DNA of 64,000 nucleotides from Candidatus Omnitrophota bacterium. Its GTDB lineage: Bacteria > Omnitrophota > Gorgyraeia > JABMRN01 > RBG-13-46-9. Of the stretch, positions 26,448 through 30,191 are shown in pieces. The DNA lies in NCBI GenBank assembly GCA_013203315.1, contig JABMQJ010000016.1, forward strand, positions 4,956 to 68,955, read 5' to 3'. Position numbers and translations under genes: made by a program. Below the pieces are notes generated by a model. The model had not been told where the DNA came from and ran no database searches. It saw only the letters and a list, made by a program, of their open reading frames with translations. Position 1 is the stretch's first letter, and each line of letters starts with the position of its first letter.

Positions 26448-26870
26448 ATGCAATGGAGCAAACGACCGAATAATAACGGCACCACCCTAGTTGAAATACT
26501 CTTTTCGGCCGCAATTCTTGCCATGGTCGTATCGGGTGTACTTTTTATATTTGCCCAAACGCTTGACATGTCAAAAAGAATCGATTATGAATATACAGCG
26601 ACAAATCTTGCCAAGGCGAGAATGGAAAGGGCAAGAGCCGTTATAGAATCAAGTGGGTTCGATTCCCTGGGCGATTTAAACGAAACCGATACAATGGTAG
26701 ATGAAACCGGCGGCGGGAACCTAAGCGGCGACTTTAAACGCTCGACAACGGTAACCGTACTTGATGCAAACCGCACGCAATTTGAAGTCGTAGTCATATA
26801 TAAATATAGGGGTAACTGGAAGAATGATGCTTCCGTAACGCTTACTACAATTTTTTCGACAATACAGTAA
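26448..26870 (+). CDS. Minor pilin / pseudopilin with prepilin-type N-terminus
   Basis: 'NNNG|TTLVEILFSAAILAMVV' (G-1, E+5) class III signal followed by a hydrophobic helix, ~140 aa. Confidence 0.65.
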   Translation: MQWSKRPNNNGTTLVEILFSAAILAMVVSGVLFIFAQTLDMSKRIDYEYTATNLAKARMERARAVIESSGFDSLGDLNETDTMVDETGGGNLSGDFKRSTTVTVLDANRTQFEVVVIYKYRGNWKNDASVTLTTIFSTIQ

Positions 26871-26874
26871 TAGT

Positions 26875-29034
26875 ATGAAAAGAAAAAAGCATTATAAAAG
26901 CGGCGTGACGCTGATCGAGCTTATGATGTCGGTTCTCCTGGGCACCATTTTGCTAGGCATTGTCTTAGGCGCATGGTATTTTACCTATAGAAACTGGGCG
27001 CTTGATAGAATAAGGACAAAGAACAGGGTTGAGCTTCAAATCGCCGTGGAACGGATCAAGAGCGAGCTCAGGCTTTCAAGCACTACATACCTAAGCCTTC
27101 ACCCCGCAGGTGAAACCGAATACACTGCCATAAGTTTTCCGATGGCAGATTCTGACGCGAACGGCTTTTTTAGCTTAGACGGCGATGGGCACATCGACTG
27201 GGATAAGAGCGTCATATACCACGTTTATGATAATTCGTCGACAGGATTCACGGAGCTTAGGAAAACAGAGTTTACCAGCAACCACGACGTATTAGTTGTC
27301 GATGCCCAAAGAGAGACACAGCTTGCCAATGCCGTGGCAAACGGAGACGGTTCGAGTGGACCCAACTCAGCTAATGCAACTACTGAAACTATAGTCGAAA
27401 AACTCACAAGTTTTATCATAAACCCGCAGGCGCAGGAATTTGACGGGTACAGCCCTACTGCCAAAAAAAGCGACAACGTGACGTTCGGTAGCGTCAGGCT
27501 TACATCGGGAAATCATGATTTCAGGTTCGAGGTAACCGGGAAAAATACCAATAATACCGATCCGTCGGGATATAAATTTGGCATAGACACGCTTTCTATT
27601 TCACCGAGTGGCTGCAAGCAGGAAATGGAGGTTTACACGCCTCAAGCATCAAGTGGGGATACTAGCGCAAAGATCGGCCCCAATTTACTCTGGAGCGGAA
27701 ATAATTTTCAGCGATACAGTGCTGACGCAGTCGGCGACTATGCCACCTTTAGGCTATATTACGACAGCTGGCTTGAATCCAATTTTGATAATTCTGTAAG
27801 AGAGAATACGATTTTGACAGGTGACGATCTATCCGTGCAATTACCGGATCTCGATTCGGGAGAAGAAGTTACGTGGACCGCAGATGTTGAAGCGGGTAGT
27901 GTAAACGGCGATGCGGTAAAAGCGGATTTTCCTTTGACACTCGCCGGAATAACTATAAGAAATGTTATTTCCTCCGTCAACATCGATTCAGGCGGAAATG
28001 CATTTAGAGTCCAGTTTGACTCGCATTCTACTTCTCCCCTGACAATTGATGCCGCTTATATTGACGAAAGGGATTCCGGCGAAAATTGCGTGAATCCTCC
28101 GGTAACCACAACCCCCGGTGAAACAAGGATACAACTTTATTTTACCGACGCTTTGGATAATATTCTGCCGGGAATAACAATTCCCGCCGGTGAGAGCGCA
28201 TATTCGAATTGGGCAATTTTTCCGATTGATTCTTCAAAAAATTACTTTGTGACCTTCTCTGTATCAGGGGCCTCATTTGCAAGCCACTGGGCCGGGACCG
28301 AGCCAACTGAAACAAATTCATATTTGATGGGTGGCGATTATGCTGCACAGGCTGTGTGGTCTGATGTGACCCATTATCTCGTACATGAGTCTTTACCTCC
28401 CTTCGCCGACGAAAGGTACACTTCATCCGCGAATATTTACGCGCAGGCTTCGCTTGAGGTTTGGTCACAAAGCGGTAGTGTTACAACGCAGATTTATGAT
28501 ACAAAAATAGCGAACCCAGTTTATAGGCCAATGAATTATTCGAGCTTTGGATCTGTTTCGGTCTACGGTCGTTCAAGTGATGATTCCCTTATGAGCGGGG
28601 CATCGGCGTGGACTGCCGGATCTGTGACCGGCACAGGAAGATATGCGCAGGCCAAAGCAGATCTTTCTGTAATACCGTATTGGACATGCATCGATCATTC
28701 GGCGGCTATAAATGTCCCAGATTCAAGCTATAAAAATTCCGGCATGATAACCTGCTCAGGGGCGGGATGTGGAAAGTTTCTTATTCCGACTCAGGGCGTT
28801 AATGCGCCCTGGGTCGATAATATTTTAGTCACCTGGCCGGGAGAGACAACGATGTGCGACATAAGCGGTTATTTTGCGCAAGATTCAGACTACGGAATTA
28901 TAAAACTTCTTGTAGATGGAAATGAGCTGATAAAGGGTATGGAGTTTAATGTAACGGTTTACGAAGATTTTCAAGGTGCGGTCTATACAACAAGCCAACA
29001 AACTGAGGTCGAACCGAGGAATACCGGAAAATGA
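26875..29034 (+). CDS. Giant (719 aa) minor pilin / pseudopilin, Ser/Thr/Gly/Asp-rich, probable pilus-tip adhesin
   Basis: 'HYKSG|VTLIELMMSVLLGTILLGIVL' (G-1, E+5) prepilin N-terminus followed by ~680 aa of beta-rich, S/T/G/N/D-rich sequence; 4-nt overlap (ATGA) with the next gene. Confidence 0.6.
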   Translation: MKRKKHYKSGVTLIELMMSVLLGTILLGIVLGAWYFTYRNWALDRIRTKNRVELQIAVERIKSELRLSSTTYLSLHPAGETEYTAISFPMADSDANGFFSLDGDGHIDWDKSVIYHVYDNSSTGFTELRKTEFTSNHDVLVVDAQRETQLANAVANGDGSSGPNSANATTETIVEKLTSFIINPQAQEFDGYSPTAKKSDNVTFGSVRLTSGNHDFRFEVTGKNTNNTDPSGYKFGIDTLSISPSGCKQEMEVYTPQASSGDTSAKIGPNLLWSGNNFQRYSADAVGDYATFRLYYDSWLESNFDNSVRENTILTGDDLSVQLPDLDSGEEVTWTADVEAGSVNGDAVKADFPLTLAGITIRNVISSVNIDSGGNAFRVQFDSHSTSPLTIDAAYIDERDSGENCVNPPVTTTPGETRIQLYFTDALDNILPGITIPAGESAYSNWAIFPIDSSKNYFVTFSVSGASFASHWAGTEPTETNSYLMGGDYAAQAVWSDVTHYLVHESLPPFADERYTSSANIYAQASLEVWSQSGSVTTQIYDTKIANPVYRPMNYSSFGSVSVYGRSSDDSLMSGASAWTAGSVTGTGRYAQAKADLSVIPYWTCIDHSAAINVPDSSYKNSGMITCSGAGCGKFLIPTQGVNAPWVDNILVTWPGETTMCDISGYFAQDSDYGIIKLLVDGNELIKGMEFNVTVYEDFQGAVYTTSQQTEVEPRNTGK

Positions 29035-30191
29035 TTAAAAATAAAAAAGGCGCAATATTCATAACCGTTATGGTTATTTCCATGCTTATGATTTTGGTGG
29101 GTGTAAGCGCCTCAAACATGTTAATGCAGGATGTCCACATGGTCAAGTACTTGAAAAAATCCACGACGGCGCAGTATATTGCCGAAGCGGGTATAAACGA
29201 CGGCCTGGCGACACTAGTGCAAAACGGTTTTGCGGCCAAGGATACGGATTTTCCTTTAATTGATAATACTTTTGGCGGGGGAGGCTATAATGTTACTGTG
29301 AGCGAAGTAGGCGGCAGGGTGCTTCTAACATCGGTCGGCACTTTTGAGAGTATTTCGCGAACAGTTGCGGCGGAAGTAAAGGATAATACTGCTACGGCAC
29401 TTTTGTATATGATGGCATCCGGCACTGACTTAAGACTCAGGGCATTTTTTCTGGGTCTTGCGGATATCAATGGTGATCTTCATGCAAATAACGATTTGAG
29501 GTTAAAAGCACAGGCGCTTGCGCTTATTGACATAGACCCTTGTGGCGCCACATGTTGCGATGGAAACATCTCGGCCTGTAACAGGATTTTCCAAGCAACC
29601 GGATTTTTAGGTTTTATAAATGTTGCAGGAAGCACAACCGAAGGCATTACCGTTGCGCCGGTATCGTTTCCCCAGTTTGACTACGCCTATTATGTAGTCC
29701 AAGCAGTAGCCAGCGGTGATTACTATAATGGAGATACCGACTTCGGTTCAGTTGGCACTACGACCGACCTCACCCCAGGAAACGGTATAGTATACGTTAA
29801 CGGTACCGCCAATTTATTTGGAACTGTAAATCTAAACGGAGGGATCGTTGCGGATAAGATCAATGTCCGCGGCCGGTTAAACCAGATAAAAACAGGTAGT
29901 AAAAATGTTATTATCGCAAAAGGAAGCGATACCGGAGGCACCGAAGGCGACATAAGCATATTTTTTCGGTTGGATGTCGAAGAGGCCGTTGTTTTTGCTG
30001 CGCGCGACTTCAAGGTAGTCGCGGCTTTTTCGACTGTTGTAGTTACGGGTTCTCTTTTGGGCAGGAGAAACATAAGAATCTGGGATTTGCTAAGCAGTAT
30101 CACCTATAACCACAAACTTTTAAGTCCTACCGGAATACTTGGCCCAAATGGCGAAACCGAGCCATTCACAGTAGTTAGCTGGAATAAGTAA
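29031..30191 (+). CDS. PilX-like pilus assembly protein (PilX_N domain)
   Basis: N-terminus 'KGAIFITVMVISMLMILVGVSASNMLMQD...AQYIAEAGINDGLA' matches the PilX N-terminal domain; Gly/Thr-rich beta-repeat body. Confidence 0.55.
   Translation: MIKNKKGAIFITVMVISMLMILVGVSASNMLMQDVHMVKYLKKSTTAQYIAEAGINDGLATLVQNGFAAKDTDFPLIDNTFGGGGYNVTVSEVGGRVLLTSVGTFESISRTVAAEVKDNTATALLYMMASGTDLRLRAFFLGLADINGDLHANNDLRLKAQALALIDIDPCGATCCDGNISACNRIFQATGFLGFINVAGSTTEGITVAPVSFPQFDYAYYVVQAVASGDYYNGDTDFGSVGTTTDLTPGNGIVYVNGTANLFGTVNLNGGIVADKINVRGRLNQIKTGSKNVIIAKGSDTGGTEGDISIFFRLDVEEAVVFAARDFKVVAAFSTVVVTGSLLGRRNIRIWDLLSSITYNHKLLSPTGILGPNGETEPFTVVSWNK

Follow-up and report, generated by a model that had tools for sequence, protein, structure and literature searches.

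What stands at the tip of a type IVa pilus at whose locus no gene for the tip adhesin PilY1 is found? The question is raised by a 64,000-nucleotide stretch of DNA from a Candidatus Omnitrophota bacterium (contig JABMQJ010000016.1, positions 4,956 to 68,955; hereafter the window), in which three co-oriented genes, for proteins of 140, 719 and 386 residues, lie directly 3' of pilMNOPQ-rng. We propose, with a probability of roughly 0.6, that the products of this trio prime the type IVa pilus of Omnitrophota and form its tip complex, in which the giant 719-residue pilin would display adhesive modules. The genes, with positions counted from the first letter of the window and a slash between residues -1 and +1 of each prepilin, are:

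26448-26870, + strand: small minor pilin, PilV/GspI/ComGE-like, 140 residues, 15.5 kDa as precursor, with class III signal peptide NNNG/TTLVE
26875-29034, + strand: predicted giant modular minor pilin, 719 residues, 78.4 kDa, pI 4.5, with no Pfam model beyond the N-terminal motif
29031-30191, + strand: PilX_N protein, predicted ComZ-like (GspK-type) minor pilin, 386 residues, with N-terminus KKG/AIFIT

A minor-pilin set at the end of the pil gene string

A first-pass annotation of this DNA had described three co-oriented genes after rng, and their open reading frames (ORFs) are confirmed in position and strand. The stop codon of the small-pilin gene (TAA, 26868-26870) is followed 4 nt on by the ATG of the giant gene, the stop of the latter overlaps the start of the third gene in ATGA (29031-29034), as had been annotated, and a promoter-like element, TTGACA-16-TAAATT, lies at 30271-30298, 5' of rplU. 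Given the 4-nt gap, the overlap and this element, the trio is the apparent end of the pil gene string; almost all genes of the window are on the + strand.

The prepilin motifs ascribed to the first two proteins are present, with Gly-1 and Glu+5 in both MQWSKRPNNNG/TTLVE (140 residues) and MKRKKHYKSG/VTLIE (719 residues), and a six-frame motif scan of the 64 kb finds just one further Glu5 prepilin, the 111-residue major pilin at 17360. The Pfam N_methyl model (PF07963; cut-off 21.2 bits) is passed marginally by the giant (21.7 bits) and narrowly missed by the small protein (19.6 bits). Across the giant family, in which N_methyl matches 24 of 32 members at E<=1 and is the only recurring Pfam family, Glu+5 is near-invariant (Glu15 in at least 90%), and complete N-termini almost always have Gly at position -1, with three exceptions that have Ser or Ala. 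The 386-residue protein begins MIKNKKG/AIFIT and, in agreement with the initial PilX_N assignment, matches PF14341 over the full length of the profile (residues 6-56; 33 bits against a cut-off of 25.5); in its family Gly7 is invariant and Glu5 is absent, as in GspK.

Close homologs of the giant number 35 (29-100% identity, 657-770 residues), all from Omnitrophota or Omnitrophica wherever an organism is named; the match at 100% is a protein from an NCBI 'Candidatus Omnitrophica' MAG (metagenome-assembled genome). At E<=1e-30, a library of 1.84 billion proteins yields 324 cluster representatives, most of them aligned over their full length. Together with a dN/dS of 0.21-0.31 for the trio against the nearest ortholog, these families indicate that the genes are real. 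The 386-residue protein has 77 homologs, likewise from Omnitrophota where named, one of which is termed 'bactofilin family' by JGI; all titled related loci are from Omnitrophota except one MAG labelled Planctomycetia.

Among NCBIfam models the small pilin matches ComGE (NF041013; E 3.6e-6, 27 bits against a cut-off of 49), PilV (TIGR02523; residues 10-102, E 2.7e-4, 21.4 against 52.2) and GspI (TIGR01707; E 5.6e-4, 20.4 against 44.35). The same three models recur in its family of nine (PilV in 8/9, with a best E of 2.2e-9, ComGE in 8/9 and GspI in 7/9, all under the curated cut-offs), every locus that extends 5' of the giant gene has a homolog directly before that gene, and the family profile run against PDB sequences matches the N-terminal helix only. 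Because the small family matches PilV/GspI/ComGE, and because the order small/large/PilX_N mirrors pilV-pilW-pilX and gspI-J-K, a PilVWX-type set appears to be present: the trio can be taken as a divergent PilV/giant pilin/PilX set that is without only the FimU/GspH-type gene. The first-pass statement that the locus holds no classical FimU/PilVWX set therefore stands as regards FimU/GspH and fails for the remainder, since the trio itself appears to be such a set in divergent form.

That PilY1 and the prepilin peptidase are not encoded here had also been claimed, and is borne out for the 64-kb window and the roughly 10-kb flanks of the related loci, seven of which were fetched with one giant-pilin-family peptide pattern on genome contigs. 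Pfam-type domain scans find neither a PilY1/Neisseria_PilC domain (PF05567/IPR008707) nor Peptidase_A24 in any sizeable window ORF, and a tblastn search with E. coli GspO gives no match below E = 1 in the window or in any fetched locus. The supplements of the Omnitrophota survey mention none of pilD, pilY1, pilV, pilW and pilX, and a literature search for Omnitroph* with PilD found nothing relevant.

These negatives bear on the reading that the trio is an accessory, niche-specific set that accompanies a standard FimU-PilVWX-PilY1 set and pilD elsewhere and replaces no PilY1. Every known type IV filament system requires pilD, so that this gene must lie elsewhere in the genome, of which the window covers only 64 kb. 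An accessory role would also fit the missing GspH/FimU-type gene, the tandem duplication of the trio in one related locus and its separation from pilMNOPQ in another (both below), and the frequent occurrence of more than one minor-pilin set in a genome, as in Myxococcus and cyanobacteria (bioRxiv 10.64898/2026.02.12.705559). However, in the six genomes examined no minor-pilin set other than the trio is attached to the one pilMNOPQ operon, the gene tables of the approximately 200 kb of fetched Omnitrophota loci list no PilY1-type domain, and solenoid-PilX systems have so far generally been found without PilY1 (bioRxiv 10.64898/2026.02.12.705559), so that we regard an accessory set as unlikely.

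Predicted folds of the two large pilins

An AlphaFold2 model of the giant pilin, built from a 32-sequence alignment (pLDDT 87.6, pTM 0.69), consists according to DSSP of a 54-residue helix (13-66), a beta/alpha region and, past about residues 160-185, beta structure alone. This agrees with the original description of a prepilin N-terminus followed by beta sequence rich in Ser, Thr, Gly, Asn and Asp, which make up 41.6% of residues 40-719 as compared with 28.2% in the window's other long ORFs; the protein is of genuine prepilin type, extended by some 650 residues of beta structure. Its parts, all on the + strand, are:

26875-27072, + strand: residues 1-66, leader KKHYKSG/, Glu+5 and long alpha-1 helix (13-66), from DSSP on the model
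27073-27429, + strand: residues 67-185, presumed pilin head, beta/alpha (strands 74-134, helices 137-156, strands 168-185)
27475-27588, + strand: residues 201-238, motif FGSxxLxxGxHxFxFxVxGKN...GYxxGID in common with a xanthan-binding module, from the family profile against PDB sequences
27910-28359, + strand: residues ~346-495, variable predicted beta-sandwich, like the carbohydrate-binding-module (CBM)-like domain of acetylxylan esterase (AcXE), from Foldseek against the PDB
28360-29031, + strand: residues 496-719, two further predicted beta modules, from model secondary structure

The pilin-proximal part and the C-terminal ~80 residues are the best conserved. The presumed head (67-185) has a mean pairwise identity of 0.49, residues 611-719 reach 0.50, and the most conserved segment of all (0.55) is 201-238, over whose 38 residues the family profile matches 7ehg (MiXBM residues 95-132; E 8.9e-8), a module of Microbacterium xanthan lyase (PMC10881899). 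The module at 346-495 has the lowest identity (0.38), with 167 extra alignment columns and an insertion hot spot at 405-426. Foldseek against the PDB ranks 9kr0, 7tog, 7toh and 7toj first for the giant (E 1.7e-9 to 6.9e-8; CBM-like domain of a new acetylxylan-esterase family and of a PVA esterase) and matches the CBM domain alone (7tok_B) with an E of 1.2e-5 and a TMt of 0.77, and the family profile aligns with 7tok at residues 354-488 (E 0.15). The same type of CBM-like domain occurs in phage SGNH-esterase and tail proteins of BFVD, one giant homolog matches Pfam CBM_6 at 0.002, and relatives of 800-1010 residues carry insertions past about profile position 480, one of which is a Laminin_G_3/concanavalin A (ConA)-like lectin domain. 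In terms of its model, then, the giant contains a beta-sandwich that resembles the CBM type in fold and is a modular pilin in the sense of Raynaud et al. (2021), a pilin module joined to extra modules.

Of the large globular or beta-helical tip module once envisaged for this protein, the large beta part is retained and its placement at the tip is plausible, whereas the beta-helix is not: the model consists of beta-sandwiches, some of them lectin/CBM-like as the suggested search for a lectin fold had anticipated, and a solenoid is predicted only in the neighbouring 386-residue protein. A repeated immunoglobulin (Ig)-like array was likewise rejected, as hhalign among the five segments of the giant shows no internal repeats, and a PilY1-like beta-propeller is not among its 50 best PDB matches in Foldseek; the protein is a pilin and not PilY1-like.

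Two local features stand apart from the modules. At residues 605-632 (28687-28770) there is a variable Cys insert (C605, C627-x4-C632; WTCIDHS...ITCSGAGCGKF) that only part of the family has, a short loop taking its place in others such as L002 and L012 (L numbers denote related loci), and that may be a disulfide or metal loop. The C-terminal tail (29005-29031) is near-invariant, E-x-E-P-R-N-T-G-K/R, with E711, P714, R715, N716 and G718 invariant or nearly so; its pLDDT of about 69 suggests that it is probably flexible. The 386-residue family also ends in a near-invariant tail, S-W-N-K/R (30177-30188), and the extreme C-termini conserved across both families may be inter-subunit docking motifs.

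Searches for a pilin subtype in the N-terminal region of the giant returned little beyond helices. Pfam at E<=10 on ten N-terminal fragments finds N_methyl only; NCBIfam gives weak and mixed matches across the family (ComGE 13, PRK10557 6, ComGF 2, GspH 1, PilV 1); and hhalign, run with the profiles of all three families against GspG/H/I/J/K of E. coli K-12, aligns helices only, the longest alignment of the giant profile being with GspH, at 64% probability and again confined to the helix. A single homolog of the giant is labelled 'PulJ' by JGI. An N_methyl score barely over the cut-off and a head that matches no solved pilin in sequence would suit a protein that is no filament subunit at all, namely one that is processed and anchored in the inner membrane by a pilin-like segment and binds glycans in the periplasm or at the surface. 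Conservation of Glu+5 and of the 54-residue alpha-1 helix, and the strict linkage, co-duplication and co-transfer of the giant gene with I-type and K-type minor pilins, make such an anchor very improbable.

For the 386-residue protein, the AlphaFold2 model (pLDDT 90.4) has a helix at 5-65, a four-strand sheet at 76-118, a beta-rich region at 128-361 and a last strand at 379-385:

29412-30113, + strand: residues ~128-361 (~235 residues), predicted beta-solenoid insert between the penultimate and last strands of the pilin sheet, from DSSP order

Its top Foldseek match is Thermus thermophilus ComZ (6qvi; E 1.8e-7, probability 1.0), at 13% identity and TM-scores of only 0.35-0.44, and ice-binding-protein solenoids come next. 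ComZ itself combines a GspK-like pilin part with a solenoid placed before the last strand that is likened to ice-binding solenoids, and has been argued to be a tip pilin (PMC6561018). The 386-residue protein can thus be described, from its model, as a ComZ-like, GspK-type pilin with a beta-solenoid.

Since ComZ binds DNA (PMC6561018), the trio might form the tip of a competence pilus, in which the ComZ-like protein would be the DNA receptor, as in Thermus, and the giant an accessory. ComGE matches in the small-pilin family, weak ComGE/ComGF matches in some members of the giant family and the existence of a 'Com' PilV/PilX subfamily in cyanobacteria (bioRxiv 10.64898/2026.02.12.705559) lend this some weight. 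The likeness to ComZ, however, is one of fold, at 13% identity; no comEA, comEC or dprA is seen among the window ORFs; the CBM-like and lectin modules of the giant suggest glycans over DNA; and cyanobacterial solenoid PilX proteins also occur in motility and adhesion pili (bioRxiv 10.64898/2026.02.12.705559). A role in DNA uptake consequently seems quite improbable to us.

Linkage and exchange of the trio, and the surrounding pilus genes

Small, giant and PilX_N genes are found together in 9/9 distinct genomes, which represent every locus with flanks available. The usual context is 3' of pilMNOPQ-rng and 5' of rplU-rpmA-obg; in one genome (L002) the trio lies apart from pilMNOPQ, and an unrelated context, with two copies of the PilX-like gene, is seen in a high-GC lineage. 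L004 carries the complete trio twice in tandem, and its two giant pilins diverge most strongly in the variable module.

The trio evolves faster than the genes that flank it: across five genomes its proteins are 38-60% identical, as compared with 65-77% for flanking housekeeping proteins. Comparison with L007, a Black Sea MAG and the closest relative, gives a trio dS (synonymous divergence) of 0.43-0.53 and a third-position identity of 0.72-0.76, as against flanking genes that are all saturated (third-position identity 0.36-0.53); the step in nucleotide identity falls at the ends of the trio (window 26448-30191, L007 9568-13317). Codon constraint was considered as the cause of this low synonymous divergence and rejected, because the effect is absent in comparisons with five other genomes. 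From the low divergence, the position of the step and the lack of the effect elsewhere, the trio appears to have been exchanged recently as a cassette, by recombination or horizontal transfer, between two Omnitrophota lineages. Fast evolution and cassette exchange are as expected of surface or host-contact proteins, and Pseudomonas aeruginosa minor-pilin/PilY1 cassettes are likewise exchanged as islands.

Directly 3' of the trio, five relatives carry a gene for a secreted retropepsin-like aspartyl protease (Asp_protease_2, 230-247 residues, signal-peptide-like N-terminus; L001 13366-14109, L004 17255-17992, L006 11370-12062, L008 3367-4083, L013 1533-2273), which is absent from the window, L007 and L012.

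On its 5' side, Pfam and NCBIfam matches outline a complete type IVa pilus set between 11.0 and 30.2 kb:

11004-17695, + strand: pilT, a stand-alone MshEN protein, two pilB paralogs, pilC and the 111-residue major pilin, from Pfam and NCBIfam
17360-17695, + strand: major pilin, 111 residues with leader, from Pfam/NCBIfam
20588-26427, + strand: pilM, pilN, pilO, pilP-like, pilQ secretin and rng (RNase G), from Pfam, with intergenic gaps of 0-20 nt

The order pilMNOPQ-rng-trio is the same in L001, L004, L005, L006, L007 and L012. With this machinery in place, the trio is hardly the GspI-J-K-like tip of an endopilus of type II secretion system (T2SS) kind, which would push or present secreted substrates and not serve as an adhesive surface pilus. 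In favour of such an endopilus, the gene order and Glu5 pattern of the trio match those of GspI-J-K, ComZ and the Thermus minor pilins are nearer to T2SS pseudopilins (PMC6561018), the 'PulJ' label points the same way, and Omnitrophota giant-protein loci are often flanked by T2SS or type IV pilus genes (Omnitrophota literature). Yet the locus encodes the retraction ATPase PilT, PilM_2/PilN/PilO and a PilA-like 111-residue major pilin, no GspC, GspL or GspM is found among the window genes, and a 78-kDa subunit at the tip of a periplasmic pseudopilus has no precedent; an endopilus therefore has very little to commend it.

Several neighbours are of interest in their own right. The RNase G gene (rng, 24913-26427), an unusual partner in a pilus operon, is flanked by pilQ and the trio at distances of 7-20 nt and keeps this position in every Omnitrophota locus with that context (the six named above). 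Between the major pilin gene and pilM, and kept in relatives, lie genes for a 683-residue membrane protein that combines a PMT_2 (GT-C glycosyltransferase) region with tetratricopeptide (TPR) repeats (17734-19785) and for a GT2 glycosyltransferase (19799-20563), both candidate enzymes of pilin glycosylation. The stand-alone MshEN protein (12093-12566, 157 residues) has a cyclic di-GMP-binding motif (NF053729, 62 bits) and is followed by two tandem full-length PilB paralogs (12575-14314 and 14318-16042), each with an MshEN domain of its own. The major pilin is very short, and its N-terminal part resembles the Geobacter-type 'geopilin domain 1' and ComGC/GspG; the Omnitrophota literature has predicted 'conductive pilins' from such sequences. 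Further downstream, a bactofilin domain is fused to an HTH_17 DNA-binding domain (48525-49061), an unusual fusion, and a second HTH_17 protein follows (49088-49435).

A putative adhesive tip complex

As a tip complex, the trio would work as follows. The N-terminal helices of the three proteins would lodge them in the inner membrane. Once processed by a prepilin peptidase encoded elsewhere, the proteins would assemble into a bundle of helices like that of GspI-J-K and nucleate the polymerisation of the 111-residue major pilin, so that they would travel through PilQ and end at the distal tip. There the ComZ-like beta-solenoid would cap or plug the filament, which is PilY1's job in proteobacteria, and the giant pilin would hang about 55 kDa of beta-sandwich modules beside it. 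Because at least two of these modules resemble polysaccharide-binding modules, the tip would most likely bind surface glycans of a host cell or substrate, after which PilT retraction would pull the nanobacterium onto its target. The likeliest determinant of specificity would be module 346-495, the most variable.

Several observations favour this arrangement. The trio stands at the 3' end of the pil string with a complete type IVa pilus set upstream; Gly-1 and Glu+5 are conserved in two pilin families, and Gly without Glu5 in the PilX_N family, a sequence pattern that recalls GspK. A 719-residue protein with so long a beta extension could hardly be placed anywhere other than at a filament tip, one relative of the giant has a ConA-like lectin domain inserted, and a precedent is suggested, by analogy, by Streptococcus sanguinis, in which GspI-like PilA accompanies modular PilB and PilC at the tip. 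To these come the PilV, ComGE and GspI matches of the small family, the likeness of the third protein to ComZ, the confident model of the giant with its CBM-like matches, and the linkage, fast evolution and exchange of the three genes.

Other points weigh against the proposed tip complex. The three-gene module contains no FimU/GspH-type adaptor gene, and the PilV and GspI matches of the small pilin fall below the curated cut-offs. The head of the giant (profile residues 28-200) matched no solved pilin among PDB sequences, and its subtype, GspJ/PilW or GspH/FimU, is not assignable by sequence, so that its placement in the J/W position derives from gene order. As to the ligand, the CBM-like domain of AcXE shows no evident pocket for a sugar and falls outside the CBM families (PMC9105624), and the match to MiXBM spans only 38 residues; for these two reasons similarity of fold is no proof of glycan binding.

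How far does the proposed complex have counterparts? In its logic, the closest precedent is the S. sanguinis tip complex; in its parts, Thermus ComZ and the cyanobacterial PilX sets. S. sanguinis PilA-PilB-PilC (PMC8179133, PMC9934059), like the trio as read here, comprises a small GspI-like pilin and two large pilins with grafted modules, one graft being a lectin-type beta-sandwich, in an adhesive complex that is predicted to fit only at the tip and includes no PilY1. Unlike the Omnitrophota bacterium, S. sanguinis is monoderm and has no secretin, and its modules (vWA in PilB, Ig and ConA-like in PilC) are recognisable by sequence, whereas in the trio one partner is a predicted PilX_N/ComZ-type solenoid pilin and the other has about four unclassified beta modules; no sequence homology between the two sets of tip pilins is detectable.

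In T. thermophilus ComZ/PilA2 and the cyanobacterial FimT-PilW-PilV-PilX sets (PMC6561018; bioRxiv 10.64898/2026.02.12.705559), as predicted here, a GspK-like pilin carries a triangular beta-solenoid between its penultimate and last strands, acts as tip or cap subunit in type IV pili without PilY1, and is encoded beside PilV/PilW-type minor pilins. The solenoid is shorter in the 386-residue protein (about 235 residues versus about 380 in ComZ), and the trio differs further in having no FimT/GspH-type gene and in carrying the large expansion in its middle subunit instead of in PilX. With the priming complexes GspI-GspJ-GspK of the T2SS and FimU-PilV-PilW-PilX-PilY1 of type IVa pili, the trio shares the order of a small I/V protein, a larger one in the J/W position and a K/X protein without Glu5, and presumably the role, initiation of assembly and capping of the filament. 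Here, however, the locus encodes neither an H/FimU subunit nor PilY1, the protein in the J/W position is 3-4 times larger, and the K-type subunit has a predicted beta-solenoid where GspK has an alpha-domain. Enterotoxigenic E. coli CofB and Vibrio cholerae TcpB (cited in PMC8179133 and PMC6561018) resemble the giant, in its proposed role, as large, assembly-initiating minor pilins with C-terminal beta domains at the tip; they are type IVb proteins with a C-terminal beta-repeat and beta-sandwich that form homotrimeric tips from a single large minor pilin, and the 50 best Foldseek matches of the giant in the PDB include no such fold.

The grafting of adhesive modules onto minor pilins at the tip is a documented 'modular pilin' strategy, known from more than 1,200 proteins in 264 architectures that are predicted to be tip-exposed and reach 860 residues in a candidate phyla radiation (CPR) bacterium (PMC8179133, PMC9934059). 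A preprint of February 2026 reports that all cyanobacterial PilX proteins have a ComZ-type solenoid, which is proposed to substitute for the PilY1 'tip plug' where PilY1 is lacking (bioRxiv 10.64898/2026.02.12.705559). As modular pilins are widespread and solenoid-PilX systems without PilY1 have already been described, the trio is not new in kind: it is a new family and a new architecture of modular pilins and introduces no new principle. The first-pass suggestion of an alternative to the PilY1 tip adhesin is sustained insofar as no PilY1 is encoded nearby; the part that it assigned to the giant pilin, however, is in the literature proposed for the ComZ/PilX solenoid subunit.

Nearly all Omnitrophota have genes for type IVa pili, which are thought to attach these nanobacteria to host or prey cells (PMC10066038); the Omnitrophota surveys found mention such pili but are silent on minor pilins and on a tip adhesin. 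More tentatively, and as a possibility about which we are doubtful, the trio might be an exchangeable host-recognition device of ultra-small, host-dependent Omnitrophota, whose variable CBM/lectin module (residues 346-495, with insertions particular to single lineages, among them a ConA-like domain) would read host or prey glycans and set host range in the manner of phage receptor-binding proteins, with the ComZ-like solenoid replacing the PilY1 plug. The trio would add a diderm candidate-phylum example to the concept of modular pilins and another to the emerging view that solenoid PilX/ComZ proteins stand in for PilY1; for uncultured and apparently host-dependent nanobacteria, it offers a concrete candidate for a determinant of attachment and host specificity.

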